This document shows, in pieces, positions 17-23,550 of a stretch of DNA of 44,911 bases. Below the pieces are notes generated by a model. That model ran no database searches, had not been told where the DNA came from, and worked only from the letters and a program-made list of their open reading frames with translations. The position numbers and the translations under genes are program-made. The first letter of the stretch is position 1. Every line of letters begins with the position of its first letter. The DNA is from an uncultured archaeon (GTDB lineage Archaea > Aenigmatarchaeota > Aenigmatarchaeia > CG10238-14 > SCSR01): NCBI GenBank assembly GCA_964444075.1, contig CAYUFF010000003.1, positions 1 through 44,911 on the forward strand, in the 5' to 3' direction.

Positions 17-244
17 GTGAGCTACATCCTGCTCTTCGACATCCCACGGAGCCAAAAATCGCTACAAGTGAAGGTGAACCGTACCCTCCACTTTCTCGGG
101 GCCAAAAAAATCCAGCATTCGGCGTGGGAATGCGAAGAACTGGAAGGGTTGAAAAAGCTCGCCAGGATGATCTTAGAGGAGGGTGGAAAGGTGATCTTAC
201 TGGAAAAGAAGGAAGTCGAGATTTCTCCAGCGCCGTCAACTTAA
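17..244 (+). CDS. Small Cas2/PaaX-like ferredoxin-fold protein (frame is open to the window edge, so it may start upstream)
   Basis: YILLFDIP...KVNRTL..LGAKKIQHSAW matches the Cas2-like pattern (hydrophobic strand-FDI, then G..xQxSxW). GTG start after a GGGTGG RBS-like motif. Confidence 0.6.
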   Translation: MSYILLFDIPRSQKSLQVKVNRTLHFLGAKKIQHSAWECEELEGLKKLARMILEEGGKVILLEKKEVEISPAPST

Positions 245-3200
245 GCTACAATCGCCGTTGGCGTAAACCCAGTATCCGCGACCCCTCTCCAAAAAGTTCG
301 TGGGTTCCCACTTTTTGGTTGAGGGGTTCCAGTAGAGCGCCAACCTACCGTTACGCGGCTCTAAGCTACAAGTTCCTAAGTGTGTAGAGATGTCGAACCC
401 TCCCCAGGTGGCGCCGATGAGGTTGTACCCTTTCTTCAGCGGTGGTATGTGTGTTATGTCTATCGTGCTACTGCCCTCAACCTTAATCCTACAAACTTTT
501 CCGTGGGGGTTGTGGTACCAGTATCCCCTTCCTCCCAGCAAACCCTTCCACGTGACTTTTTCCCACTTTTCTACGCTTCTGTTTAGGTAGTACAAAGTTT
601 CGTTCTCTATCCCGCAATCGTCGAACAGGATCGATTTTACTTTAACGTAGGGTATGGAGACCAAGTTCCAACCGGGGGTGAGGTTGAGCGTTATGTTCAT
701 TGAAGGTGTCGGAGGGAAGGTCAAGGGTAAGTAATCGGTGTTGTCTGTAGCGAGGTTATAGGGATTATCACAAAAGCCGTCTCGATCGCTATCGCTGCAA
801 GTTTCGGAGTAGCCAGTCCCGTCTGGCTTCGCCCAGAAGTTACCCCCTATTTCTCCGACCACCGGAGGATAGATCCTCGTTCCAAACTGTCGTGTTACAT
901 TCCAATGATTTTCGTAGGTTGTTCCGAAGTCAATGTTCTTCGAGTTGTTGAAGAGGTTGTTGTAGATCAGGTTGTTGCTCGCATAGTAGAGGTAGATCCC
1001 ACTCTTCAAGTTTCGAAACTTTGAGTTCCTTATAGTCGTGCTTTCAGTCCCTCCGGTCAGGATTAATCCATCGTTCCCACCCCCTTCCATATTCAAGTTG
1101 TCTATTAGAGAGTTGTCCGCGTTGCAGAGGATTATTTCCGAAACGTTGTTGTTCCAGTCTTTTATGGTCACCGAGTGGTTGTAGAAAACTATCGGTTTAT
1201 TGCTGGTACCGATAACATTTTCAAAAGCTGCCGAGCAGTAGGAAGGGAAAGAAGCTAGGTAGAGAACGTCATAGTAAGCGTTGTCGCTCGCGTTCACGTT
1301 CGTTAAGGTGTTGGAGTCGGAGTCGTAGAGGTAGATTCCATGGTTGTTGTTGGAGTAGGTGGTGATGTTACTCAAAGTGTTAGTGTGGGAGTTAGAAAGT
1401 CGGATCCCGTCCTCGTTGGAATAAGCGACGACATTCGTTAAAGTATTCGAGTTTGAATCGATGAGCCAAATTCCTTGAAGGGAATTGGAATAAGTAGTGA
1501 TGTTGGCCAAGGTACTGGAGGTAGACCTGCTGAAGAAAATCCCATAACCGTTGGAGTAGGTTACGATGTCGCTGAGGGTGTTGCTGCTAGAAGAGTCTAC
1601 GTAAACCCCGCTTCCCGAATTAGAATGCGTTACGACGTTAGAAAGCGTGTTATCGTTTGATGAAGAAATAATCGCCACTCCTATGCCATTAGAGTGAGCA
1701 AGGATGTTGGAAAGTATGTTGTTGTTCGACGAATCATCGATGTAAATTCCGCGAGAGTTGGAGTAGGCTGTGATGTTCGTTAGGGTGTTAGAGCTAGCGC
1801 CTCCCTTGAGGTAGATTCCTTTCTGGCCGTTTGAGTAAGTTGTTACGTTGAGGAGTGTATTGAAATGAGCTCCATTAATCGTGATACCACTCCAAGAGTT
1901 ATCATGCACCCTGCAGTTAGCGACAGTATTGTTGTTGGCACCAGTGTAAAAGTATATCCCATTCCCGCTGTGACTTACATCGCAATCAAGGATTCTGTTG
2001 TTGCTATTAGCCTGAAGGTAAATGCTCCATCCCCATAAAGAATTAGTTGCCCTGCAACCCTTTACCGTGTTGTTGTTCGCGTGAAAAAATATCCAGATGT
2101 TTATGCCGTTAGAATCTGCGCTGCAATTTATGATACGGTTGTGGGAAGAACTAATAAGGTAGATTCCTCCGAGGTTGTTTGAATAAGTTGTGATGTTTAT
2201 TAGGGTGTTAGAATCAGAACTTCCGAGAGCGATTCCATTGTTGCTGTTTGAATAAGTTGTGATGCTTATTAATACGTTGGAGTTGGAAGAGGAGAGCCAG
2301 ATTCCATCATCACCTGAATAAGCGGTTATATTTTCAAGGATGTTTCCGTTAGCATTGTAAAGGTAAATATTCGCTGAACTCCAGTCGCTTACCCTGCAGT
2401 TCTTTATGGTTACGTTCGTCGTTTGCTGGGAGGAGCGAGAGATATAGATTCCGTATTCCGCTGAATCGTCTCCGTCTATCAGATGATTCTCGCAGTCGAA
2501 AATCACGTTGTTTGCCTGAATGTCTATGCAGGGAGAGGTTGATGAATCCATTATGTCTGTCGTGAGTACGTACACCCCTTCTTCGTCCAAAGTTTCGCAA
2601 GACGAGACCGGCCTTTCCTCGGCGCTGACGCTCACGCTCGGTTCTGGGTAAGTATATTTCCTAACCCTTATCCAATCGACCCAATGCCCGCTGTCAGGGG
2701 AGCTGCAACCACCACCTTCGCAGTCTGAACAACCAGCTCCAGCGCCCAGCATTAAGTAACCGTTGCCGTTGGGGTTCCAAACGCTCGTCTGGAGTGTGGC
2801 ACGTTTCAGCCCATTGGTCGGGTTCAGGTCTTGGTACTCCACGACTATATGCGAGCCGTTGAGTTTCGCGGATATTATTCCCTCGTTCAAGTCGTACCTC
2901 TTATCCCATCCAGAACCCCAGTAAGACACTATACCTTCTCTGGAGCAGGAAGTCGTATCGCTGTCTATTCCGATTCCATTGTTACTGCTTGTGGTGCTGG
3001 CGTCGTCGAAGATTTCCACCACGATGCCCTGAGAAGTCGAACCGAAACCCTTCTCGCAGGCCCATCCCGCAGAGTTATCTTTACCGTCGATTACCAAGGC
3101 TATTCCGTCTCCGTCGTTGCAGGTTCCGCAGCGATAGTTGATGGAAAACTTGAACTCTACGGCATACTCGCTGTCGTAGTTTACGTTAAAATTTTTAGCC

Positions 3201-3808
3201 TTGATGTTGCAACCCTTCCACAGGCTCTGCCTGACCAGTTTTAAGTAACCACCCTCCGCTACGCATTCTACGGAAGCGTCTCCGTCCTTCCTAGAGACTT
3301 CCCATTTATCGGTGTCTAGACTCTCAAAGTCGTCGTACAACTCGAACACACCTTCTGCGTCACTCTGGCTTACGGCCCCAGGATTCCCATAGTATACATA
3401 AATCTTTTTCTCGGAACCCGCCGGGATTCGCGGAACTTTTACCCAGACTTTAGTGTCAGTGGAGTCGCAAGGCCCTTCCAACCAGTAGTTCAGTTGGGTC
3501 ACACCGTCGGAATCGGTAAACCTGATATCGTCGCAGTCATCCTGCATTTTTCCCTCATCGATCAGGGAGGCCGTGTCCAAAACTACCAACACTTGGTAAT
3601 CGGTCAAGGTACTCCGAGAGTTCTCGTGAATGGTTATCGCCCTGCGGTATTGCCACTCTGAACCCATCCAGGCCGCTTCTACGAGACTGCTCCACGAAAG
3701 GCTCAACGCTATCGCCGCCCATACCAAAACGGAAAAACCTTTCGACCTTCCGACCTTCGCCAACGTGCTGACCACCTCACGTAACGGAGGAAACCCGTAA
3801 TTTAACAA
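236..3808 (-). CDS. Large secreted/surface protein: signal peptide, DUF2341 domain, lectin-like region, NosD/CASH parallel beta-helix repeats, C-terminal GWNL repeat domain
   Basis: Hydrophobic leader ending VEA, then WQYRRAITI...DIRFTDSDG..LNYWLE..VWVKVP..IYVYYGN (DUF2341), many GIxLxxSxxNTLxNIT repeats, GGNFW..D..PL motif, and LTPGWNLVSIP/LKKGYNLIG repeats. The true start may be slightly downstream. Confidence 0.85.
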   Translation of the reverse strand: MLNYGFPPLREVVSTLAKVGRSKGFSVLVWAAIALSLSWSSLVEAAWMGSEWQYRRAITIHENSRSTLTDYQVLVVLDTASLIDEGKMQDDCDDIRFTDSDGVTQLNYWLEGPCDSTDTKVWVKVPRIPAGSEKKIYVYYGNPGAVSQSDAEGVFELYDDFESLDTDKWEVSRKDGDASVECVAEGGYLKLVRQSLWKGCNIKAKNFNVNYDSEYAVEFKFSINYRCGTCNDGDGIALVIDGKDNSAGWACEKGFGSTSQGIVVEIFDDASTTSSNNGIGIDSDTTSCSREGIVSYWGSGWDKRYDLNEGIISAKLNGSHIVVEYQDLNPTNGLKRATLQTSVWNPNGNGYLMLGAGAGCSDCEGGGCSSPDSGHWVDWIRVRKYTYPEPSVSVSAEERPVSSCETLDEEGVYVLTTDIMDSSTSPCIDIQANNVIFDCENHLIDGDDSAEYGIYISRSSQQTTNVTIKNCRVSDWSSANIYLYNANGNILENITAYSGDDGIWLSSSNSNVLISITTYSNSNNGIALGSSDSNTLINITTYSNNLGGIYLISSSHNRIINCSADSNGINIWIFFHANNNTVKGCRATNSLWGWSIYLQANSNNRILDCDVSHSGNGIYFYTGANNNTVANCRVHDNSWSGITINGAHFNTLLNVTTYSNGQKGIYLKGGASSNTLTNITAYSNSRGIYIDDSSNNNILSNILAHSNGIGVAIISSSNDNTLSNVVTHSNSGSGVYVDSSSSNTLSDIVTYSNGYGIFFSRSTSSTLANITTYSNSLQGIWLIDSNSNTLTNVVAYSNEDGIRLSNSHTNTLSNITTYSNNNHGIYLYDSDSNTLTNVNASDNAYYDVLYLASFPSYCSAAFENVIGTSNKPIVFYNHSVTIKDWNNNVSEIILCNADNSLIDNLNMEGGGNDGLILTGGTESTTIRNSKFRNLKSGIYLYYASNNLIYNNLFNNSKNIDFGTTYENHWNVTRQFGTRIYPPVVGEIGGNFWAKPDGTGYSETCSDSDRDGFCDNPYNLATDNTDYLPLTFPPTPSMNITLNLTPGWNLVSIPYVKVKSILFDDCGIENETLYYLNRSVEKWEKVTWKGLLGGRGYWYHNPHGKVCRIKVEGSSTIDITHIPPLKKGYNLIGATWGGFDISTHLGTCSLEPRNGRLALYWNPSTKKWEPTNFLERGRGYWVYANGDCSLS
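2176..2264. repeat. Exact 20-bp direct repeat (TGTTTGAATAAGTTGTGATG) at 69-bp spacing inside the beta-helix coding region
   Basis: Copies start at 2176 and 2245; 69 bp equals one 23-aa beta-helix rung. Confidence 0.8.
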
Positions 3809-6020: not shown

Positions 6021-7950
6021 CCCTCCTAACCTTCTTTATTTTAACCCCGACGATTTTGTAGTTCGGCGTGAACGTTTCCTCGTCGAACTGCAACGGAAAA
6101 AGTTTGTTGGGCAGCGCTTTGGAGAAGAGATGCATTCCCACAACCCCTTTTGGAATTCTCTTGTCGGTCTTAACCCTTGCCCTTATCTTAGAGACGGGAG
6201 AGATTATCTCGACTACGTCACCATCCATTACTCTCAGAACCTTCGCGTCCCTCTCGTTAAGGTAGCAGCCGTCGAAGCTCAACTTCCTCAGCCTTTCGGA
6301 TTTTTCGGTCATTTCTCCGGTCAAAAACTGGTAGGGAGACCTGAAGGTCGTGAAGACGAACGGATACTCCTTGCTAACCATCTCCTCCACACCCTCGAAT
6401 TCCTCCGGAACGAACCTCTTGAACTTTATCTCCTTATCGGCCCATCCGTCGTTCCCTCTGTAAACGAACTCCGGGTCGACATCCCTGTAGTCGGGGATTA
6501 TTTCCACTATTTCCCTGAAAATCTCTAGCTCGCACGAGTAGCCGAAGTACCTTCCCTTCCCGAAAAGATTGCTCAAGGCCTTGAAGATTTTCCACTCGGG
6601 CCTTCCGATTGGTCTCAGCACCGGATTAACGAGCCTTACCCTCCTTTCACAGTTAGTAATCGTTCCCCTCCTTTCCAGCAGAATCGGAGTCGGCAGTATA
6701 ACGTCAGCGAACTTGGAGGTGAGGTTGAAGTAGCTTTCCATCTGGATGAGGAAGATTTTCCTCAGGTTTTTGTGAACCCGAGTGAGGTCTGGTAGCGATT
6801 GTGCCGGATTGAAGCTAGAGAGGAAAGCTGCCTTCACAGGAGAAATTAAGAAGGCTTCGAGGATGTTCCTACCCTTGGTTAGCGGAACCTTCCTTCCCCA
6901 GAGCTTCTTAAGCTTCTCTACGTTAACCATCGCTCCCAGAGGCAATGCTTCAGGGCTGCCACCCATGTCGCCAGCTCCCTGCACGTTGACCTGACCTCTC
7001 CAAGAAAGCAGCTTCCCGCCCTTGAGGAGCACCAGGTTGAGCAACGAGTGCACGTTCTCTATCGCGTTCACGTGCTGCGTTAATCCCATCCCGTGAGTAG
7101 CGGCGAAGGCTTCGCTCTCGGCTATGGATTCGGCGATCCTCAAGAATTCCCTTTTCCTCAGCCTGCACAGCTTACAGACAACCTCAGGCTCGTACTTCTC
7201 AACGATTCTTTTAAGAATGCCGAAACCCTCTATTCTTTCGGCAGTTTTATCGTAGCTTTTCGTAGAGATCAGGTAGTTCATCATTCCGTTGAGGAGGGCT
7301 GTTTCCGTGCCTGGGTAGATTGTTACAGCAACGTCGGCCCGCTGAGAAGTTATGCTCACGATCGCTTGGACGGAGAGTATCTTGAGACCCTTTTTCTTCA
7401 TCTCCATAACCCTTTGGAAGAACGCAGGGTAGTTGCTCGCTGGATTTGAACCGATGATTAAGAGGCAATCCCTGTCGAAAATATCGTCGAGCCTCCACGG
7501 CGCTGCACCTATGCCTAACACATTTCTCATACCCTCGACCGTAGCTTTATGGCACAGCCTCGTGCAGCAGGAATCGACGTTGTTGGTGAAAAAAACTATC
7601 CTCGCGAACTTTTGCATCACGTAGTTGTCCTCGTTGGTAACCTTTCCCGAGGGAACGAAGATCACTTCTTCGGGAGAAAGATTCTTGGTTTTTTTGTAGA
7701 TGAACTCGAGAGCCTTTTCCCAAGTTACGGGCTTCAGCTTAGAGTTCTTGCTTTTCCTTACTAACGGCTGGGTTATCCTACCTTCCCTCGTTACTTCGTG
7801 AAGGGTCAGCCCTTTTATGCAAGGCTTTCCCCTGCTAATCTCATCGTCCTTACAAGGCAGTACTTTAACAAGAACGTTGTCTTCTACGACGAACCTTAGC
7901 TTGCAACCGCAACCGCAATACGGGCAAACGCTCACGATTTCCTCTTCCAT
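5986..7950 (-). CDS. Formate dehydrogenase alpha-subunit-like (FdhF/FdhA family) Mo/W-bisPGD oxidoreductase
   Basis: CPYCGCGC...KPCIKG 4Fe-4S motif, NNVDSCCTRLCH active-site segment (Cys, not Sec), GLTQH, RGQVNVQG, GTITNCERR, C-terminal molybdopterin dinucleotide-binding domain. Confidence 0.88.
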   Translation of the reverse strand: MEEEIVSVCPYCGCGCKLRFVVEDNVLVKVLPCKDDEISRGKPCIKGLTLHEVTREGRITQPLVRKSKNSKLKPVTWEKALEFIYKKTKNLSPEEVIFVPSGKVTNEDNYVMQKFARIVFFTNNVDSCCTRLCHKATVEGMRNVLGIGAAPWRLDDIFDRDCLLIIGSNPASNYPAFFQRVMEMKKKGLKILSVQAIVSITSQRADVAVTIYPGTETALLNGMMNYLISTKSYDKTAERIEGFGILKRIVEKYEPEVVCKLCRLRKREFLRIAESIAESEAFAATHGMGLTQHVNAIENVHSLLNLVLLKGGKLLSWRGQVNVQGAGDMGGSPEALPLGAMVNVEKLKKLWGRKVPLTKGRNILEAFLISPVKAAFLSSFNPAQSLPDLTRVHKNLRKIFLIQMESYFNLTSKFADVILPTPILLERRGTITNCERRVRLVNPVLRPIGRPEWKIFKALSNLFGKGRYFGYSCELEIFREIVEIIPDYRDVDPEFVYRGNDGWADKEIKFKRFVPEEFEGVEEMVSKEYPFVFTTFRSPYQFLTGEMTEKSERLRKLSFDGCYLNERDAKVLRVMDGDVVEIISPVSKIRARVKTDKRIPKGVVGMHLFSKALPNKLFPLQFDEETFTPNYKIVGVKIKKVRRAKPLSKAGAKA

Positions 7951-13624: not shown

Positions 13625-14227
13625 TTACCTCGCACCCTCAGCTTCCTTCTCTATCCTCTCCTTCTCCCTGATGGCTTCCGATTTGCTTGCATCGTTCCTG
13701 TAAGCCCCTATTATCTCCTCCGCGAGGGCCTCTGCCATAGTCAGCCTTTTGCCGAAGGACTTTCTGTATGCGGCCTGGACCATCATCCTTAATGCAAGGT
13801 CGACCCTTCTCTGCGGGCTCGTGACCACGGCCCTCCTTACTATTATACCCCCTAGCTGGTAGGCAGCGATCTCTTCCCTTATCGCCGCGTTTTCTATAGC
13901 TCTGACCAACACTTCTATCGGGTTTTTTCCTGTCCTCTTCTCTATGATTTCGAACGCTTCCTTAACCACTTTGTACTGGGTCAGTGTTTTTCCGCCGCAC
14001 CTCGCGGAGCTTATGAAGTGTTTCCTCCCCTTGTGCCCGGGTCCTTTGAGCTTGTTGATCAGCCTCTCGACGATGTGCATCTTGGATTTGTAGAATTGCT
14101 GCTGGGTAAACCTTCCGCAAGTCCTAGGTAAGAGCCTCGGCTCTAGGTTTATGTACCTCGCCAGTCCTGGGTCCTTCACCTCTATACCTTCACACGACCA
14201 TTTACCAAAAAGTTTGAAGCTTGCCAT
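13625..14227 (-). CDS. rps7: 30S ribosomal protein S7
   Basis: KLFGKW, IVERLINK, NPIEVLVRAIENAA, SPQRRVDLALR. Confidence 0.97.
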   Translation of the reverse strand: MASFKLFGKWSCEGIEVKDPGLARYINLEPRLLPRTCGRFTQQQFYKSKMHIVERLINKLKGPGHKGRKHFISSARCGGKTLTQYKVVKEAFEIIEKRTGKNPIEVLVRAIENAAIREEIAAYQLGGIIVRRAVVTSPQRRVDLALRMMVQAAYRKSFGKRLTMAEALAEEIIGAYRNDASKSEAIREKERIEKEAEGAR

Positions 14228-14240
14228 GGTCTCGAAACCT

Positions 14241-14663
14241 TCAGCGAGAAGGCTTCTGCTTCTTTCCCTTTAGGATTTCGCTGAGCGCAACGCCGTTGAC
14301 GGCAATCACCCTGTACTTTATACCCCACATGGTTCCCTTAGGCCCTCCCTGGCTACCTCCTATCTTTTCCAGCAACACCTCGTCGTGCTCGTCGATGTGG
14401 TCTATCGCTCCCGTCCCAGGGACGTGCGCCGTGACCTGAACGTTGTTCTTTATTAACTGGACTCTAACAGCCTTGATCAGCCCGGAGGATGGTTGCTTCT
14501 GCTCCACTCCTTTCTTGTAAAGGACTATCCCTCTTGCTTGTGGAGCGCCCTCGAAGGGTTCTTTCTTCCAGAGCTGCAACTTCCTCCACTTGTAATCCTC
14601 CTTCGACCACCTAAACTTTTTCCTCCTCTGCCTCAACTTCCTCGCCGCAAACTCTCCCGGCAT
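14241..14663 (-). CDS. rps12: 30S ribosomal protein S12
   Basis: [20 protein letters not shown]...VRVQL, IDEHDEV; canonical operon position. Confidence 0.96.
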
Positions 14664-14669
14664 GAACCA

Positions 14670-15083
14670 TCACCTTATTACCACATCCTTGACGTTGAAG
14701 TTCCTCTGGAATATTTTCTTGAGAAGGTTTAAATTCCTTTTCTCCCTGCCTATCACCATCGGCTTGTGTATCTTGCTAACCCAGATTTCCAGCACGTTGT
14801 CGTCGGTTAAATTAACCTTCAACGCCTGCGGGACCAGATTCTTCGCGAAAACTGTCACGTCCGGAGCGTACCGTACCAGCTTTATACTCTTTCCTAGGAT
14901 CCTCTCTACGTACTTCAGGTTCCGCCCCTCACCGCCCGAGATGAATCCCTCTTCCATACCGTCCACTATCGCGTAGACCGTGTTCGTCTGTTCGTCAACG
15001 ACGCAATCCTTGACAGACGCCCCGGTAAAGTTCTCTATAGCCGTTATCAGCCTTATTACCTCTTGGTCAAACTTTATCGTCAT
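14670..15083 (-). CDS. nusA: Archaeal NusA (KH domains)
   Basis: ATG at 15083 overlaps the rpl30e stop; FTGASVKDC and two GxxG-type KH loops; canonical position. Confidence 0.9.
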   Translation of the reverse strand: MTIKFDQEVIRLITAIENFTGASVKDCVVDEQTNTVYAIVDGMEEGFISGGEGRNLKYVERILGKSIKLVRYAPDVTVFAKNLVPQALKVNLTDDNVLEIWVSKIHKPMVIGREKRNLNLLKKIFQRNFNVKDVVIR

Positions 15084-15352
15084 TCCTTTATCACCAGGAC
15101 GGAAACTGGAAACGGCTTTCCGCAAACGACGCCAAGCTCTCTGCTCGAGCCGCTGAAAACTTTCACCTTGAGGTTGAAAACCTTTGCGCTGTGCTCGACC
15201 TGCCTCTTCACTTCCTCCGGTGCGTTCTCTGCCATCACTATAAGCTTTGGTCTCTTCGTCTTTATAAATCTGATGGATTTTCTGTAGCCGAAGATCACCT
15301 TGTCTTTCTTGATCGCGTCCAGCAGGGTGTCTTTGAGCTCCACGCTACCCAC
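15080..15352 (-). CDS. rpl30e: 50S ribosomal protein L30e
   Basis: VIFG..KLIVMAENAP..SRELGVVCGKPFPVS. Confidence 0.96.
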   Translation of the reverse strand: MGSVELKDTLLDAIKKDKVIFGYRKSIRFIKTKRPKLIVMAENAPEEVKRQVEHSAKVFNLKVKVFSGSSRELGVVCGKPFPVSVLVIKE

Positions 15353-17564
15353 CCTCCTCCTCTCCCTCGAACCTCGCCACGAGGTCGAACATTCCGGTAC
15401 CGGCCGGGACTACGTGACCCACCATCACGTTTTCGAAAATTCCCTTGAATTCTTCCGCTTCGTTCTTCACGGCGGCCCTTATCAAATGCTTAATCGTCTC
15501 CTCGAAGGCAGCCCTGGCGAGGACGGAAGTCTTGCTGCCCGCAACCCCGTACCTTCCTATGGGCATTATCCTCCCGGAGAAGGTCATTATATCGGCGACG
15601 AGCTCCACGTGTCTCCTGTCCACGTCCAGCCCCTGCTGGTTGAGCGTGTTCATGATTTCTTCGGCTATCAAGTTTCTCGCAGCCTCTATTCCGAGGACTT
15701 CGGCGACTTCGTGAATGTTGTTGGTAACCGTTTTCCTGGCGTCGACTTCTTCCATCCTCAAAATTTCCCTCAGGTTTGAACCCACCGTCATTATCACCCA
15801 CCTGTTCCCTTCCTGCTTAATCATTGCGTTCTTTATTCCTTTGATTGGAGAAATGGGAACGTTGAGAACCCTTTCCTTTATCCTTTCAAGCTCCTTCACG
15901 TCAACCTCTTTCTTCGGCGTGACGACTACCCCGTTCTTCTTGCTCCTCACCCTCACCTCTTTGATTTCTTTCTTTATCGCCGAAACTGCTTTTTCCACGT
16001 CGCTCTCGTTGGGAATCTCCACTTCTATGCTTCCCTTCTCCAAGTTCAAGGTAACCCTACTCGCTACGTCGGATAAAGACCTCTCGATAATCTTTTCCGC
16101 AAACTCTCTGGCTGCCTTCTCTGTGTTGTAACCGCTTTTCAGGTAAATTTTCATCTGCGGAGTTTCGGGGGTTTTCTTCGCATCGACTATCTCTATCAGC
16201 CTCGGAAGGCCGTAAGTAACTTTGGTCACCGCGGCACCCGCCACATGATAAGTTCGCATCGTGTTGTGGACTATTATTCCGTCGAAAGTGGCGAATGTAT
16301 GAGCTTCCTCGACGGAGATGTCGTAGATGTGTTCCCGCGACGGAGGAACTTCCTCTATCTCAACTATATCGTCCCAAACCACGTATGAGGTTGCTGTCAC
16401 AAAACCTCGCGATCCTTTCCAGAGAGCTCGGAAATCCTCAAAGGATATGCGAAGCTCATAACTCTTTCCGCTGACAGACTTGCGGGAGAATATTCCTAAC
16501 CTCGCCAAGAGGAGTTTCACTCCGTCTATGAACCCTTCCGATTGAGAAGAGAGTTTAATGGTTTTGTTTTTCGCGTCGAGCTTTCCTTTGCCGTCAAAAA
16601 TCGCTCTCAAGAAACCGGAAACGAAGCTTTCTTTCGCGCTAAAGACAAAGTTCGGTATTTTTCTTTCCTCTGGCTTGGCTCCAAAGCTTTTCGTCAAGAA
16701 ACCAGAGAGAGGATGGGAAGTGATAAGCAAAAAAATATTTTCCTCCATACGCTTCTCGTAATCCAACGAGAACCTTTCGAGGAAACCTTCGATTCTCTCG
16801 GCGAAATCCTCATTAGGGCAGGAGATGCGAATTATTCCACGGTCAACGTCAACGAAACCTCCGGAAGCGAAAGCCCCTAAGAAAAAGCCGAATAGCTCAT
16901 CCAACTCAACCTCACTTCCGAGAGCTCGCAATCGCAGGGTTTCCAAACAGTTGTGCGGCAGAAACTTTACGATAGGTACTTTCATCCCAACCCTAAGCTC
17001 GGAACCCTTTACGTTCACGAATCCTTCTCCTCCGTTGTTTTTGATCACGAACGCGTGACTCTTGCTGGCCAGGACCTTCCTCCCGCTTTTCGTGACCACC
17101 CTCAACAGATTTTCAGAAGTCTTCAGCCTCACGCAACCAGTTATCCTTTTCCAGCGAAGTCTCTCTTTTTCGTCCAAAGCCAGAGCATAGAGTTTCACTC
17201 CTTCTGGCAAGGTCAAGGCATCAACTCCACCGGAAGAAGTATAACCGTAAACTTCCATCAACCTGTCGACGAAAACCCCTACCGGAACTTTAAACACTCT
17301 ATCCCCTTCCCTAACCAGTATCCTCTCCTCGTAATCCAAGCACATTTGCGTAGCTGGTTCGGAGATGGATTGAGCGGCTATCAGGCCTATGGCCTCCCCA
17401 GGCTCCCAGCTGCTTTTCAAGTAAGCTTTCTTCACCTCCTCCTCCAACCTCTTGGCTTGTTCTTTATTCAACTTTCTTCTCCTCACAACCTCTTCGATTT
17501 TTTCTTTCAGGACTTTTGGGAGCTCTACCTCATCCGAAGAGCTGGGTTGCGATCCTTTCGACAT
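15345..17564 (-). CDS. rpoA2: RNA polymerase subunit A'' (Rpo1C), intein-containing
   Basis: PGEAIGLIAAQSISEPATQM|intein|TMRTYH..GLPRLIEIVDA, LGIEAAR, SVLARAAFE; 379 aa after splicing. Confidence 0.96.
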   Translation of the reverse strand: MSKGSQPSSSDEVELPKVLKEKIEEVVRRRKLNKEQAKRLEEEVKKAYLKSSWEPGEAIGLIAAQSISEPATQMCLDYEERILVREGDRVFKVPVGVFVDRLMEVYGYTSSGGVDALTLPEGVKLYALALDEKERLRWKRITGCVRLKTSENLLRVVTKSGRKVLASKSHAFVIKNNGGEGFVNVKGSELRVGMKVPIVKFLPHNCLETLRLRALGSEVELDELFGFFLGAFASGGFVDVDRGIIRISCPNEDFAERIEGFLERFSLDYEKRMEENIFLLITSHPLSGFLTKSFGAKPEERKIPNFVFSAKESFVSGFLRAIFDGKGKLDAKNKTIKLSSQSEGFIDGVKLLLARLGIFSRKSVSGKSYELRISFEDFRALWKGSRGFVTATSYVVWDDIVEIEEVPPSREHIYDISVEEAHTFATFDGIIVHNTMRTYHVAGAAVTKVTYGLPRLIEIVDAKKTPETPQMKIYLKSGYNTEKAAREFAEKIIERSLSDVASRVTLNLEKGSIEVEIPNESDVEKAVSAIKKEIKEVRVRSKKNGVVVTPKKEVDVKELERIKERVLNVPISPIKGIKNAMIKQEGNRWVIMTVGSNLREILRMEEVDARKTVTNNIHEVAEVLGIEAARNLIAEEIMNTLNQQGLDVDRRHVELVADIMTFSGRIMPIGRYGVAGSKTSVLARAAFEETIKHLIRAAVKNEAEEFKGIFENVMVGHVVPAGTGMFDLVARFEGEEEGG
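16263..17342 (-). mobile_element. Intein (360 aa) with degenerate LAGLIDADG homing endonuclease
   Basis: Begins CLDYEE and ends IYDISV..GIIVHN before Thr+1; SKSHAF block B; LAGLIDADG-like FFLGAFASGG and FLRAIFDGKG. Confidence 0.95.
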
Positions 17565-20500
17565 CTATACCACCCTCCACCCTTTCGATCTTTGAAGGAT
17601 CTAGTCCATCGCAACCAGCAGTAAACTGGATTATCTTTCCAGCGCTATCCCTCACCGTTCCGTCGTACTCTACCTTCAAATCTTGCAGAGCACCGACCAA
17701 CCTCCTCTCCATGTAGCCGGAATGTCTGGTTTTCAACGATTTGTCCATCAGGGATTCCCTGCTGTTCATCGCGTCGAAGAAGAATTCGAACGCGTTGAGA
17801 CCATCCTTAAACCCTCTCTTCACGAATCCCTTGCTCTCGATGGAGAGGTCTCCCACTTTGAAGTGTGGGAACGTCCTTCCGTAGTAACCTCTTTCTATCC
17901 TCTCCCCCATTATCGCCTCTTGACCTACGCACGCCGCAGTCTGTATTATGTTGACTATATCTCCTCTCGCACCGCTTCTCACCATCACCAGCGTGTCGTT
18001 TTCCTTCAAATGCTTGGTCAGCACCTCGTCTATCTCGCTCAACACCCTGTTCAACCTCCTCTTTATCATCGTCTCCAGAGTTTCTCTTGGGGTCCTTCCG
18101 ACCAGAACCTTCAGCTCACCCGCCTCAAACTTCCTGATGAGCTTGTCCACGTCTCTCTTCGCCGACTCAACGATCTCCTCTATCTCCCTCTTAGCCTTCG
18201 GTGGTAAGTCTTGGTCGGTGGGGCTTATAGAGAACCCTCTCATCATGAGGTATTCCAGAGCGAGCTTGGCTACCTTGAACAAAAACTCCTTCACGAACTC
18301 TTGCCCGTAGATAAGCTCCATCTTATCGATCATCTTGCCGCTCTCCGACGCGACGGCAACCTTATCCACGTAACCCTCGACCAACTTCCCATCCTTTATC
18401 ACAACTTTATCGCCGAGCTTCGTCTTAAATTCTACGCTGAAACCCTCTGGCAGGAAGAGGCTGAAAATTTCCCTACCGCTCATGGAGGACTTCTCAGGGA
18501 TTCTAACGTTCCTGTCTACGGCCCTGATTAGCTGAACGAACTCCCTCCTCGGTATTTTTTCCTCGTACTTCGTCAGCAGGTAGAGTCCGGTGACAAAGTC
18601 TTGTTTTATTCCTATGATCGGCCCCGAAAACCTTGGGCTCCTTATGTGCCTCGGGACCATCATCAACTCCACGGCCTCGGCCCTCGCCTCCTCGGTCTGG
18701 GGAATGTGGAGGTTCATCTCGTCTCCGTCAAAATCGGCGTTGTAGGGCGGACAGGTTGCGAGGTGCAGCCTCAAGGTTTTGAAGGGCATCACCCTGATCC
18801 TGTGGGCCATCACGCTCATCCTGTGCAGACTCGGCTGTCGGTTGAACAGCGCCACGTCTCCGTTGAGCAAATGCCTCTCGACGACCCATCCGTAGGCTAT
18901 TTCCCTCGCCACCTCTTCCTTGTTGGCTTCCGTGATCCTTTTCCTCCTGCCGTCAGGCCTAACTACGTAGTTAGCTCCTGGCCACGTATCAGGCCCGTTC
19001 AAAATCATCCTCCTCAACCTTTCCACGTTCCTCTCAGTCACCATCTCCGGTATCGTCAGCTCTCTCGCTATTTCTTCGGGGACGCCGACCTCGTCGATGT
19101 CTATCATGGAGTCGGGGCTCACCACCGACCTCGCCGAGAAGTTTACCCTCTTCCCAGCCAAGTTCCCCCTGAACCTCCCTTCCTTAGTCTTCAGCCTTTG
19201 GGAGAGTGTCTTGAGCGGCCTCCCAGACCTGTGTCTAGCAGGAGGAACTCCGCTGAGCTCGTTGTCGAAGTAAGTCGCGACGTGGTACTGCAGGAGCTCC
19301 CAAAGGTCTTGGATGATGAAATCCGGTGCTCCCAACTCAAGGTTCTCCCTTAACCTCTCGTTTATCCTTACGACGTCGACGAGCTTGTGGGTCAAGTCGT
19401 CTTCGCTCCTCTCGCCGGTCTCGAGCGTGATGCTGGGCCTCACGCTCACTGGCGGTACCGGGAGGAGGGTGATCACCAGCCACTCTGGTCTAAAGCCCTT
19501 GTAGCCAAGCAGCTCGAGGTCCTTCCCGTCCACCCTCTCCAACCTTTCCCTAACCTCTACCGGGGTCAATGGCGCGCTACCTTCGACGATCGTGTATGGC
19601 TTTATCAACTTTATCTTCTTTTGCTGCGCGCCGCAGTGTGGACACTTTTGTTTCACAACCTTCAAAACTTCCTTCAGCCTAAGCCTTTTCGCCTCTTTCA
19701 ACGTCTTTTCTGGTAAGAGAAGCCTTCCACATTTCCTGCAGAAAACTTTCAGCAAGTCTGTGATGAACTTGGAATAATGAACGTGGATAACGGGCTTTAC
19801 GAGTTCTATATAACCGAAATGCCCTTGACATTCTCCTATCCTACCACCGCAGGTTCTGCACCTTATCCCAGGGTCTATCACACCGAGCCTTGGGTCCATC
19901 AACCCTCCTTCGAGAGGATACCCCTCCTGGTCGTAGAGTTCCGTTCTTTTAATCTTCGCGGTGCTCATCTTCTTGACCATCTCTGGGCTGAGTATGCTGA
20001 ACTCTATCCTCTCGATGCCGCTACCGTCTTCCTTGATAACGACCTTGGGATAGATCATCATCGACATCAACTCTTGGAGGAGTAGCTTGAAGGCGTATGC
20101 CATTTCCACGTAGACTATCTTGCTCTCCCCGCAAACCTGGCAGTATTTCCTTCCCCTCACCCTATCCTCTATAGCTATCAGGCCGCATTGAGTACAGAAA
20201 GGAATCATAGCCTTGTCGGAATCGAACCTTTCCTTGAGGGCAAGCACGGAACCGTGAGCTATCAGGCAATCCTTCTCCATCTCACCAAACCTAAGACCAC
20301 CCTCTTTACTCCTTCCCTCGGTGGGCTGCTTCGTTAGCAGAGTTACTGGCCCTCTCGACCTTGCGTGAATCTTGTTTGAAACCAGATGGTCAAGCTTTTG
20401 GTAGTAGCAGCAGCCTATGAAGATTTTGACCTTGAACCTCTCTCCAGTCTTTCCGTTGTACATCGTTTCCACTCCGCTGTACTCGAAGCCCAACTCTTCG

Positions 20501-21819
20501 AGCCATTTCCTCAAATCTTCCTCGGAAGTCGGGCTGAACGCTGGGGACTTGATTATCTCTCCTTTTAGGGCACCGACCTTTCCTGCCAACAACTCCAAAA
20601 GCGTTCCGACGGTTTGCCTAGAGGGTATACCATGGGGGTTGAAAATCAGGTCTGGAACTATTCCGCTTTCCGTGAAAGGCATATCTTCCTGTGGAACTAT
20701 CAAGCCGATCACGCCCTTCTGTCCGTGACGAGTCGCGAACTTATCGCCTATCTCCGGGATTTTCAAGTCCCTTACCTTGACCTTCACGAGCTTCGTTCCG
20801 TTCAGCGTCTCGGTGATGTAAACCTTGTCGGCGATTCCCCTATCCCTGTGCCTAAGCCTCACGGAAGTTTCCCTGATGTTCTCGATGCCGGCGATGAACC
20901 TGTCCATCGTTCCTAGAAACCTCAGCGGGGAAGTCCTCCCTATCACCACCCCCCCAGACTCTATCTCCGTTTCTGGGTTCACTATCCCGTCCTCTGGTAG
21001 GTGTTTGTAAGCATCCTCGCCGGCATAGCCCCTGACTCCTGGTTGCGGTATCCCTATGATATCTTCCTGCCCACCCATGTACCTCTTCTCCTCGGCCTCG
21101 TAAGTCCTGAACATGTAACTCCAGAAAAGTCCTCGCTGAATAGAGCTCGCGTTCACAACTATAGCATCTTCCATGTTGTAACCATCGTAGCAAGCGACGG
21201 CGACGACGACGTTACAACCGCCAGCGTGCTTGTCAAAGGGAATGGCATCGTAGGTGTAAGTTTGGACGAGCGGAACTTGGGGATAGATTAGAATGTTGGA
21301 CTTGGTATCCACCCTGTTCGGGTGGCTCAGCAGGAACATTCCTATGGCTTGCCCTATCATCTTCGCTCCGAAGTTAATCCTATCGCCCCTGTTGAACTCC
21401 GGATAAGGTATGAGGGAGCCAGAAAAACCGAATATTAGCGAAGGGTCTAACTCCAGGTGGGTGTGCTCGGGAGTGAGTTCATCCGGAGTTAAAGCGATGT
21501 AAGCGTTCTCTTCCTCTTCGGCGTCGAGGTACTCTATGATGCCCATCTTTATCAAATCGCTGAACTTCAGCTCACCCTTCTTCAGCTTTTCGATATGTTC
21601 TTGAGTGAGCTTCGGCTTTCCGTCCTCGACGACTATCAGGGGCCTCCTGACCCTACCTCCGTCCGTAGAGATTGAGACGGCATCCAAACGCTCATGATAA
21701 GCAACGTTTATCAGGTTGGAAACCTCCCCTCTCCTCCTCGCCTCCCTAATCTTCCTCACAAGCTCTTTTGGTCTATCGGTCCTTCCTACGTACATCCCGT
21801 CGAGGAAGACATCAGCCAC
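17530..21819 (-). CDS. rpoB1-rpoA1: Fused RNA polymerase subunits B' (Rpo2C) and A' (Rpo1N)
   Basis: N-terminal part has GDKFATRHGQKG, GGLRFGEME and a Zn ribbon; after the EDGSG linker come IEFSILSPE, CRTC..GHFG, GKRVNFSAR, the catalytic NADFDGD and SGYMERR. Confidence 0.95.
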   Translation of the reverse strand: MADVFLDGMYVGRTDRPKELVRKIREARRRGEVSNLINVAYHERLDAVSISTDGGRVRRPLIVVEDGKPKLTQEHIEKLKKGELKFSDLIKMGIIEYLDAEEEENAYIALTPDELTPEHTHLELDPSLIFGFSGSLIPYPEFNRGDRINFGAKMIGQAIGMFLLSHPNRVDTKSNILIYPQVPLVQTYTYDAIPFDKHAGGCNVVVAVACYDGYNMEDAIVVNASSIQRGLFWSYMFRTYEAEEKRYMGGQEDIIGIPQPGVRGYAGEDAYKHLPEDGIVNPETEIESGGVVIGRTSPLRFLGTMDRFIAGIENIRETSVRLRHRDRGIADKVYITETLNGTKLVKVKVRDLKIPEIGDKFATRHGQKGVIGLIVPQEDMPFTESGIVPDLIFNPHGIPSRQTVGTLLELLAGKVGALKGEIIKSPAFSPTSEEDLRKWLEELGFEYSGVETMYNGKTGERFKVKIFIGCCYYQKLDHLVSNKIHARSRGPVTLLTKQPTEGRSKEGGLRFGEMEKDCLIAHGSVLALKERFDSDKAMIPFCTQCGLIAIEDRVRGRKYCQVCGESKIVYVEMAYAFKLLLQELMSMMIYPKVVIKEDGSGIERIEFSILSPEMVKKMSTAKIKRTELYDQEGYPLEGGLMDPRLGVIDPGIRCRTCGGRIGECQGHFGYIELVKPVIHVHYSKFITDLLKVFCRKCGRLLLPEKTLKEAKRLRLKEVLKVVKQKCPHCGAQQKKIKLIKPYTIVEGSAPLTPVEVRERLERVDGKDLELLGYKGFRPEWLVITLLPVPPVSVRPSITLETGERSEDDLTHKLVDVVRINERLRENLELGAPDFIIQDLWELLQYHVATYFDNELSGVPPARHRSGRPLKTLSQRLKTKEGRFRGNLAGKRVNFSARSVVSPDSMIDIDEVGVPEEIARELTIPEMVTERNVERLRRMILNGPDTWPGANYVVRPDGRRKRITEANKEEVAREIAYGWVVERHLLNGDVALFNRQPSLHRMSVMAHRIRVMPFKTLRLHLATCPPYNADFDGDEMNLHIPQTEEARAEAVELMMVPRHIRSPRFSGPIIGIKQDFVTGLYLLTKYEEKIPRREFVQLIRAVDRNVRIPEKSSMSGREIFSLFLPEGFSVEFKTKLGDKVVIKDGKLVEGYVDKVAVASESGKMIDKMELIYGQEFVKEFLFKVAKLALEYLMMRGFSISPTDQDLPPKAKREIEEIVESAKRDVDKLIRKFEAGELKVLVGRTPRETLETMIKRRLNRVLSEIDEVLTKHLKENDTLVMVRSGARGDIVNIIQTAACVGQEAIMGERIERGYYGRTFPHFKVGDLSIESKGFVKRGFKDGLNAFEFFFDAMNSRESLMDKSLKTRHSGYMERRLVGALQDLKVEYDGTVRDSAGKIIQFTAGCDGLDPSKIERVEGGIDVERIATQLFG

Positions 21820-23314
21820 TCATCTCACCCTCTACTATCTTCATCAGCGGCTTCAAATCCTTTTCGTCCACTTCCTGGGTAACCTGAGACATCAAGCCAA
21901 GGTATTTTCTCAACCCTATCGTGGCTCCTTCTGGCGTTTCGGAACAGCAAAGCCTCCCGAAATGTGTGGGGTGTAACTCTCTCGCCTCGAAGTGCTCCTG
22001 CGTGGAGGTCAACGGAGAGTAGATGAGCCTCATGTGGGAGATCGTCTTAACGTAGCTGCTCCTCTCCAAGCGCTGCGAAACTCCCGTCCTACCTCCTGCC
22101 CAGCTTCCTATTGCTAAGGCAGAAACGAGTTGATTTGTAAGCACGTTCGCCTCGACGACCGCTTGCAACGGTGGTAGCTTTCCCCTCCTCGTGAGCTTCC
22201 TGTAATTGTAGTTTATCCTCGGTACCAACCCGTACCTTCCCAGCAAAATCGCCCTCAGCTGAATCTCCAACAAATCTCCGGCCAACCTCAACCTTTTGTT
22301 CATGTAGTGGTCGAGGTCGTCCTCATCTATCTCTCCTACGTGCAACCTCAACAGCTTTTCTACAGCCTTCGCCAAGAATGTCGCCTTCTTCATCCTATCC
22401 TTCGGTTGCTGACCGAGGTGTGGTAGGAGATACTTGTCGATCAACCTCGTGGCCCTTTCTATCCTCTTCTCCTTTGGCAGAGCCTTGAGGTATTCCCTCG
22501 CGATGGCGTCGAGAGCTTCCTTCACGTTGGTCGCATCGCACTCTACGAGGTTGACGTAGAATTCGTCCTGAATCCTAGGGTCGAGGGAAATGGCCGTCAT
22601 CACGTCCTTATCGCTCTCGAGGCCCAGGGCTTTCAGCACCGTTGCCACCGGAACCCTCAGCACGTTGGCGAAGGAAACCGTTATGATTCCGTTTTTCTTC
22701 CTTTCGAGCAGGTGCTTCTGCAGGTAGCCGTCCCTTTCGGAGTGTATTCTCGCGATTTCTGTGACGTTCCCTCCGTTCACCCTCCTCACCAAAACCCTGT
22801 TCGGAACGATCTCTTCCACCATCACCAGTATCCTTTCGGTCCCGTTGATTATGAAGTACCCACCAGGGTCGTCTGGGTCCTCACCGGCGTTTATTAGCTC
22901 GTTCCTGTCCATCTTGGATAGCGGGCAAATCTTAGATTTCACCATCACCGGAAGTTCCCCGAAGTTCACCCACTGAGGGTCACCCTCAATCCCGTTGATT
23001 ATGGGCGTGACCTCGATCCACATAGGAGCTGAATAAGTTAAATTCCTTACCCTCGCCTCGTAAGGCAGGATGGGCCTTTCGGAGCCGTCAACCTCCATAA
23101 CCCAAGGACCCCAGTCTTCCTTACCTACCCTGAATTCCCCGAGCTTTAGCTTCAGCTCCCCAACTTCCGGAACGCTCGGCTCTATGGTTCCTATGCTCTT
23201 GAATATCCTCGGTATCTTTTTTTCGACGAACTCGTTGTAAGAGTCTATCTGGTGCTTTACCAGACTGTTTTCTTTCAGGTAGGCGTTGAGCAAAACTGCA
23301 AAATTTTCGTTCAC
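21812..23314 (-). CDS. rpoB2: RNA polymerase subunit B'' (Rpo2N)
   Basis: [49 protein letters not shown]. Confidence 0.97.
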
Positions 23315-23550
23315 CCTTTCACCACAACCCTATAATACACGTTCTCCCCGGCCGTAGGACTCTTCCTGATTATCTTCACGACGTCCCCCGGCTTTGCTCC
23401 CAACAACTTCGCGACCGGGTCTGACGCGAGCATCCTCGGGAGTTGTTTTAGCGTGGCGCGGTATTCTTTCAAAACTTCTTTCCTCTCTTCCTCGCTGAGT
23501 AAGACGTGCTTCGGGACTAACTCGTGTTCCAAGATGTTAAACTCCTTCAA
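23311..23550 (-). CDS. rpoH: RNA polymerase subunit H (Rpo5)
   Basis: [33 protein letters not shown]. Confidence 0.97.

Follow-up and report, generated by a model that had tools for sequence, protein, structure and literature searches.

The RNA Polymerase Locus

The stretch of DNA considered here (the window) comprises the 44,911 nucleotides of contig CAYUFF010000003.1, from assembly GCA_964444075.1 of an uncultured archaeon of the phylum Aenigmatarchaeota. Its minus strand carries an RNA polymerase (RNAP) locus in which the B' part of the second-largest subunit and the A' part of the largest subunit are encoded by one gene, the fused rpoB'-rpoA'. This gene occupies 17530-21819, starts with GTG and forms a single stop-free frame of 1429 amino acids (aa). 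An earlier note on this DNA had reported an open reading frame of that length without stating its strand. The frame is found at exactly this place on the minus strand, and a plus-strand reading of 17530-21819 was ruled out, as its translation is full of stops.

Both halves of the protein are readily recognized. According to Pfam, aa 4-594 contain Rpb2 domains 4, 5, 6 and 7, while Rpb1 domains 1-5 occupy aa 602-1426. The B' moiety (aa 1-597; 20029..21819, minus strand) includes the C-terminal clamp zinc ribbon and matches the NCBIfam equivalog TIGR03670 (rpoB_arch) at 875.7 bits, above the cut-off of 811; this match takes in aa 4-597 and positions 1-597 of the 599 in the profile. The A' moiety (aa 602-1429; 17533..20016, minus strand) contains the clamp zinc sites and matches the equivalog TIGR02390 (RpoA') with 1145.9 bits against 1042.55 (aa 602-1423; profile 4-866 of 867). 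It also matches NF006336 (A') with 1165.2 against 819, and the A' matches together span aa 601-1426. Because curated cut-offs are passed over nearly whole profiles, the B' and A' halves are full length and nothing has been lost at the joint. The two subunits are tethered: an in-frame joint links the C-terminus of the second-largest to the N-terminus of the largest, and all domains are retained.

The Mg-binding catalytic motif NADFDGD is intact at aa 1026-1032 (18724-18744, minus strand) in Rpb1 domain 2. Rpb2 domain 6 lies in the same 1429-aa protein, and both catalytic barrels are found in one chain, as had been proposed earlier. The residues C542/C545/C560/C563 of the B' zinc ribbon are invariant or nearly so across 19 fused proteins, and those of the A' clamp (C654/C657/C664/H667 and C694/C697/C726/C729) are invariant across the same set; these Cys/His groups are the clamp zinc ligands. 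The genome (928 kb in 76 contigs, 93% complete) holds no second B' or A' gene, and the fused gene is its sole copy of either.

The remaining parts of the two large subunits are encoded separately on either side. Upstream, rpoB'' (Rpo2N, 500 aa; 21812..23314, minus strand) shows Pfam Rpb2 domains 1, 2 and 3 and scores 531 bits against 355 with PRK09606; its last 8 nt also form the beginning of the fused gene, from the GTG on. Downstream, rpoA'' (Rpo1C, 739 aa with an intein; 15345..17564, minus strand) is recognized by Pfam Rpb1 domain 5, Intein_splicing and LAGLIDADG_3, as well as by TIGR02389, intein_Nterm and intein_Cterm, and its first 35 nt lie within the 3' end of the fused gene. The layout is thus B''/B'A'/A'' (slashes separate genes), in agreement with the first description of the locus.

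The Junction

The joint reads ...IYPKVVIKE-DGSG-IERIEFS..., with a linker of four residues, D598-G599-S600-G601, encoded at 20017..20028 on the minus strand. The junction text given by the earlier note (...IYPKVVIKEDGSGIERIEFSILSPE...) is present in frame, and the GSG codons (G599-S600-G601) lie at 20017-20025, where it had placed them. G599 aligns with the B' stop of relatives, and S600 aligns with their A' Met. The junction itself contains neither a stop nor a Met, again as first described: between V593 and M614, there is no in-frame ATG, GTG or TTG. Because the next in-frame start is M614, a separate A' start is impossible without the loss of the conserved first strand IERIEFSILSPE. In G014, the sister genome (75% protein identity), the linker is of equal length, EDGTG versus EDGSG, and the surroundings of the junction differ from those of the window at several nucleotides, with both synonymous and non-synonymous changes.

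Contigs from two runs, X1 and X2, span the joint. In X1, the likely source run, record 1 is identical over the whole 2 kb around the joint, with no indel listed. In X2, which comes from a different sample and study, record 13 spans 19987-20340 with zero differences and zero gaps and bridges the joint. This check compares assembled contigs, not raw reads. Record 20 of X3, a run that has 6% of the sampled words, ends 11 nt past the GSG codons and was not counted as bridging. The "joints" found in X3 were disregarded, being conserved RNAP pieces of other organisms at 85% likeness.

The contig from an independent sample, the linker of the sister genome and the wide spread of the fusion among relatives uphold the earlier view of an evolved in-frame fusion rather than an error. 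The matter of stop loss has two sides. As a sequencing error, it is rejected; as an evolutionary event, it very probably gave rise to the fusion, unless a small indel did.

Distribution of the Fusion and Subunit Layouts

The fusion is common among the closest relatives of the window genome, whose closest database proteins bear the name Candidatus Aenigmatarchaeota. Of 40 relatives from the same order, 39 were matched; 18 of these have one uninterrupted frame of 1426-1502 aa, and 21 have two genes. Separate genes are thus not universal in close relatives, a case that had been named as one in which the idea of an evolved fusion would fall. A broader sample of the phylum consisted of 301 genomes, assigned to Aenigmatarchaeota by database names, which were searched with aa 500-700 as the query; 287 were matched. 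Among them, 53 are open across the joint (window genome included; hand count of the table), 37 give one full-length match with one or more in-frame stops, and 197 give separate or partial matches. In those 37 genomes, B' and A' stand in the same frame, parted by one or two stops (TAA, TAG or TGA), and are one substitution away from fusion. A recoded stop was considered and rejected: TAA, TAG and TGA alike serve as junction stops in relatives, with no sign of another genetic code. The fused share is 40/97 of matched genomes in the order of the window and 13/190 in the rest of the class, and in family f5, it reaches 15 of 17 genomes.

Protein databases contain many such fusions. In a search of 5.8 billion proteins, both Rpb2 and Rpb1 domains are present in at least 100 of the 120 listed clusters (90% identity), which answers the earlier suggestion that archaeal proteomes be searched for proteins of this kind. 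Nearly all the listed clusters are 1417-1461 aa or 1910-1924 aa long, and they come from NCBI, JGI, ENA and Logan. One ESM Atlas cluster has 204 members and a 1429-aa representative.

At least five layouts of the large subunits occur in Aenigmatarchaeota: B''/B'/A'/A'', B''/B'A'/A'', B/A'/A'', BA'/A'' and B/A. The layout of the window, B''/B'A'/A'', recurs in another order (L045, G129:C1), and L046 has B''/B'-stop-A'/A''. Three loci, L042 (G092), L043 (G142) and L044 (G051), encode B''B'A' in one frame of 1922-1934 aa with A'' separate, and stop-free B''B'A' frames of at least 1827 aa are found in nine genomes of the phylum sample, in families f18 and f16. The A'/A'' split is also undone in some members of the phylum: at L041 (G257:C18), an in-frame TAG separates an unsplit B (1102 aa) from the unsplit A (A'+A'', 1188 aa) that comes after it. 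At L045, A'' begins in the same frame right after the A' stop (6912-6916), and one more substitution would yield a B'A'A'' chain. Two other loci, L021 (G021:C15) and L022 (G003:C21), show a frame change in B' near aa 459-470, inside Rpb2 domain 6. This could be an error in the metagenome-assembled genome (MAG) or a further split.

A still longer protein, P0184 (2214 aa, from an 18.7-kb Logan contig), is a single chain in which Rpb2 domains 1-7 precede Rpb1 domains 1-5, up to the end of A''. Among the NCBIfam models, those of archaeal B, A' and A'' match it best, each under its cut-off. Its identity to the window protein is 31%, and DFDGDE is retained. By these features, P0184 is a complete single-chain B-A'-A'' polymerase of archaeal type, cellular or viral.

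Origin and Lability of the Joint

The split relatives suggest how easily the joint can open or close. In these genomes, B' ends ...K-E-E/D-stop and A' begins M-x-V-D-K-I-E-F, and the B' stop and the A' ATG overlap (e.g., GAA TGA TG) or are at most 9 nt apart. Three split relatives have in-frame stops: TAA ATG at L009 and L021, and TAG ATA ATG at L022. The old A' Met codon is retained in four fused genes (L004, L007, L008 and L015), and the fused L007 reads GAT AAA ATG versus GAT TAA ATG in the split L021. Because the stop and the ATG overlap or adjoin in relatives, one substitution or an indel of 1-2 nt is enough to fuse or split the genes. In L024, L028-L030, L036, L038 and others, the last B' codons (Lys-Glu-Glu/Asp, e.g., AAG GAG GAA) are rich in purines and resemble GGAG, 5-10 nt ahead of the A' ATG. 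In such split relatives, the conserved acidic tail of B' may also act as the ribosome-binding site for A'.

The history of the joint was followed on a maximum likelihood tree of B'+A' (45 rows, 1423 columns, junction columns removed), calculated with IQ-TREE in quick mode under LG+G4 with the Shimodaira–Hasegawa-like approximate likelihood ratio test (SH-aLRT). Four full-length B-A' proteins served as the outgroup, and all 40 genomes with data were included; G026 (81% complete) had no match and is absent, and L021, L039 and L040 are partial rows. On this tree, the state has to change between fused and split ten times among the 40 genomes, against a shuffled mean of about 15, and nine of these changes are forced by branches with SH-aLRT of at least 95. 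The approximately unbiased (AU) test rejected a single clade of the 21 split genomes (delta lnL 699, p-AU 1e-6). Some clades are wholly fused, among them L018-L020, L010-L012 and L015-L017. The linkers of fused clades are EDGSG/EDGTG, EEERT, GEEMR, DNT, EEEQL, EDKMS, EEMPK, RGETL-like, EGK, EEMNS-like and KNLGR-like. Their differences between clades fit several independent events, regardless of the tree. The fusion, once proposed as a possible lineage marker, is a poor one: its state changes ten times within 40 genomes of one order, and a single split clade is rejected.

Structural Tolerance of the Joint

The best match of aa 440-900 in the PDB is 3qqc_A (E 1.5e-130), and the alignment runs ungapped through the joint, with 'vikedgsgieriefsilsp' opposite 'LNLSEGGKVIGSIEFGILSP' of 3qqc_A. 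According to Martinez-Rucobo et al. 2011 (PMC3094117), chain A of 3QQC is an engineered P. furiosus clamp in which B 1053-1115, A' 3-318 and A'' 334-371 are connected by short Gly/Ala/Ser linkers. As reported there, this clamp fusion was soluble, bound Spt4/5 and gave a structure at 3.3 Å. Because the window junction matches 3QQC without gaps, the B C-terminus and the A' N-terminus adjoin in the clamp, and structural biologists designed the same joint because these termini are clamp neighbours.

An AlphaFold model of aa 440-900, built from a 19-row alignment, was used for local secondary structure and for the predicted local distance difference test (pLDDT) score at the joint alone. It predicts a strand at aa 589-595, a six-residue loop and a strand at aa 602-609, with pLDDT of about 70. 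The top Foldseek match of the model is again 3qqc_A, which lends weak support (template modelling score 0.49/0.59, root-mean-square deviation 9.2).

Interpretation and Alternative Explanations

The locus very probably encodes a real and functional B'-A' fusion. Because the gene is the sole genomic copy and is conserved, the fused chain is likely to be active in the enzyme. In this DPANN archaeon, the 1429-aa B'A' protein would join the separate B'' and A'' to form an archaeal RNA polymerase that is ordinary in other respects. Its origin may lie in an ancestral operon whose B' stop and A' start overlapped or stood a few bases apart, in which a stop-to-sense change or an indel of 1-2 nt would have merged the two frames. 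The product is presumably tolerated because the C-terminal zinc-ribbon strand of B and the first strand of A' are adjacent in the clamp, where the natural termini with about two more residues would make a sufficient linker. Covalent tethering may fix a 1:1 ratio and pre-assemble the B-A' clamp interface, as in the beta-beta' subunit of Helicobacter. Because the state has switched many times in close and distant relatives, it is probably nearly neutral. Given a real fusion, the explanation that we moderately favour is a mutational toggle that drifts in small-genome symbionts with little effect on fitness, rather than a one-off adaptive invention.

Several points weigh against this interpretation. 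Translation of the gene as a single chain without later cleavage, and its role as B' plus A' in the enzyme, are what we infer from the sequence. A search for RNA runs containing the locus found none, a blank that is neutral as to expression. The groups compared in the AU test were defined after the tree was seen, the RNAP tree stood in for a species tree, and the counts of changes come from a quick tree. On the direction of the changes, fusion or fission, the cues conflict: the outgroups and the earliest ingroup branches are fused, and the retained Met codons favour fusions. The AlphaFold model is poor overall, with a mean pLDDT of 54.8. Finally, near-neutrality is deduced from lability, and the prevalence of the fusion in family f5 could equally reflect selection.

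Such selection is the core of the strongest rival explanation, according to which the tether is kept because it benefits assembly, stoichiometry or the stability of the clamp, as it might in the heat or where a reduced genome has few chaperones. The fusion has survived deep divergence, the window genome (G000) and G014 sharing a linker length at 75% identity; entire clades and nearly all of f5 are fused, and the window DNA comes from hydrothermal-vent metagenomes. Nevertheless, about half of the closest relatives lack the fusion, at least nine to ten state changes fall within 40 genomes, and the linkers vary by clade with no common motif. Maintenance by selection is considered rather unlikely.

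It is much less probable that one open reading frame gives rise to two proteins, with a post-translational cut or internal initiation of A' restoring ordinary separate B' and A'. Four fused relatives do keep an in-frame ATG at the old A' start, preceded by purine-rich codons as in split relatives. In the window, however, no such start codon is available before M614, from which a product would be deprived of its first strand, and the joint has no protease site and no intein-like element, its four-residue linker being modelled as a tight turn. An artefact of assembly or sequencing, or a chimeric MAG, by which a stop was lost or the frame shifted, can practically be dismissed: the genome is a metagenome bin of 76 contigs and the comparison rests on contigs, but an identical junction was recovered from a different sample and study, the open junction recurs in 18 species-level relatives and, across several databases, in dozens of independent protein clusters, and the sister genome combines synonymous and non-synonymous differences with a junction of equal length.

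Comparison with Known Systems

Tethered large subunits are known in bacteria. The beta-beta' fusions of Helicobacter/Campylobacterota and Wolbachia share the same topology, with both double-psi barrels in one chain, and the earlier comparison with them is apt as an analogy. Against the curated NCBIfam models of these fusions, the window protein scores 371.2 bits with PRK09603 (Helicobacter type; cut-off 5372) and 340.3 with PRK14844 (Wolbachia type; cut-off 4632), far below both thresholds, and is an analogue, not a member, of the bacterial fusion families. It is of archaeal type and joins the inner halves of two split subunits in 1429 aa, whereas the bacterial models are 2839-2890 long. Its fusion state is labile within one archaeal order. 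In the ESM Atlas, a Campylobacterota cluster carrying Rpb2_6, Rpb2_7 and Rpb1_1 ranks second among the neighbours (score 0.89). A review table lists 'Helicobacteria beta::beta'' (PMC2919709).

The engineered 3QQC clamp has the same joint, from the B C-terminus to the A' N-terminus, with a very short linker. It is an artificial fragment of 436 residues with a piece of A'' added, whereas the window protein is natural and comprises complete B' and A'. Also comparable are the full-length B-A' fusions (about 1910-1935 aa) of other Aenigmatarchaeota, which contain all Rpb2 and Rpb1 domains and align with the window protein through the same junction. They differ in that B is unsplit, so that a single chain comprises three of the four pieces. 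Their families are f18 and f16, and those at L042-L044 were verified as single frames. Both barrels also share one polypeptide in Orf6 of the yeast killer plasmid pGKL2 (Rpb2::Rpb1) and in single-chain two-barrel phage RNAPs. Those are reduced, divergent enzymes of mobile elements, whereas the window enzyme is full-size and the sole cellular RNAP. Two reviews (PMC2919709; PMC7281927) describe two-barrel fusions as recurrent in evolution.

Splits and fusions of archaeal RNAP genes have been treated as rare. Da Cunha et al. (PMC5484517) described such events in these terms, and A'/A'' cases alone are listed in the accessible text. The accessible main text of a 2024 study entitled 'Fusion/fission protein family identification in Archaea' (PMC11237513) contains 'RNA polymerase' zero times. 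No B-A' fusion is described in the accessible parts of PMC5484517, PMC6355029, PMC11237513, PMC8407392 and bioRxiv 10.64898/2026.05.13.725050. More generally, no explicit report of an archaeal B-A' fusion was found in the full-text literature, with supplements (e.g., PMC5484517 S29 and the tables of PMC11237513) and subscription journals outside the search. Koonin et al. may already have noticed such cases. The fused proteins themselves have long been present in public databases, where the listed fusions are annotated merely as 'subunit A'' or 'subunit B'.

Such one-subunit annotation hides the architecture, and analyses of marker genes or completeness can score B' as absent. In deep archaeal phylogeny, large-subunit splits and fusions serve as rare genomic characters, and repeated flips within an order warn against this use. 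The natural, optimised tethered archaeal RNAPs would be usable for studies of assembly, clamp movement and Spt4/5 or TFE binding, and for simpler recombinant expression. Mechanistically, the fusion agrees with expectations from the bacterial precedent and the engineered clamp. A wider view, which is offered tentatively, is that Aenigmatarchaeota preserve a series of RNAP layouts in flux, with the B'/A' joint toggled about ten times in one order. They might then provide the first examples in nature of tethered large subunits in RNAPs of the archaeal/eukaryotic type and, together with P0184, indicate that a whole two-barrel core of cellular type is workable as one polypeptide.

Neighbouring Genes and the rpoA'' Intein

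In archaea, the canonical gene order of this operon is rpoH, rpoB, rpoA', rpoA'', rpl30e, nusA, rps12 and rps7. The minus strand of the window carries rpoH, rpoB'', rpoB'A', rpoA'' (with its intein), rpl30e, nusA, rps12 and rps7, an order that matches the canonical archaeal operon of RNAP and ribosomal proteins. The first RNAP gene, rpoH (23323..23541, minus strand), encodes the Rpb5 C-terminal domain (PF01191, 117.9 bits, above the cut-off) in an open frame of 89 aa. A link between the fusion and the loss of rpoH or rpoK was ruled out, as both genes are present, rpoK elsewhere in the genome. Beyond rpoA'', and likewise on the minus strand, lie rpl30e (15080-15352; NCBIfam PRK01018 L30e), a KH-domain nusA-like gene (14670-15125; Pfam KH_2), rps12 (14241-14663; Pfam Ribosom_S12_S23) and rps7 (13625-14227; Pfam Ribosomal_S7).

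The intein in rpoA'' is of the LAGLIDADG type and comprises 360 aa (aa 75-434; 16263..17342, minus strand), with matches to TIGR01445 at aa 75-173 and to TIGR01443 at aa 412-435. It begins with Cys75 and ends with ...VHN (His-Asn434), followed by Thr435. The A'' proteins of intein-free relatives align aa 1-76 straight onto aa 435 onward. The intein splits RpoA'' within the conserved stretch ...SEPATQM / T(M)RTYH..., which we take to be the trigger-loop region. Inteins at the same position are found in the relatives G014 (L002), G037 (L038) and G051 (L044) and are absent from most others.

Elsewhere in the window, 236-3808 on the minus strand encodes a protein of 1190 aa. Its domains are DUF2341, NosD and right-handed beta-helix repeats, and it probably belongs to the large surface proteins that are common in small symbiotic archaea.

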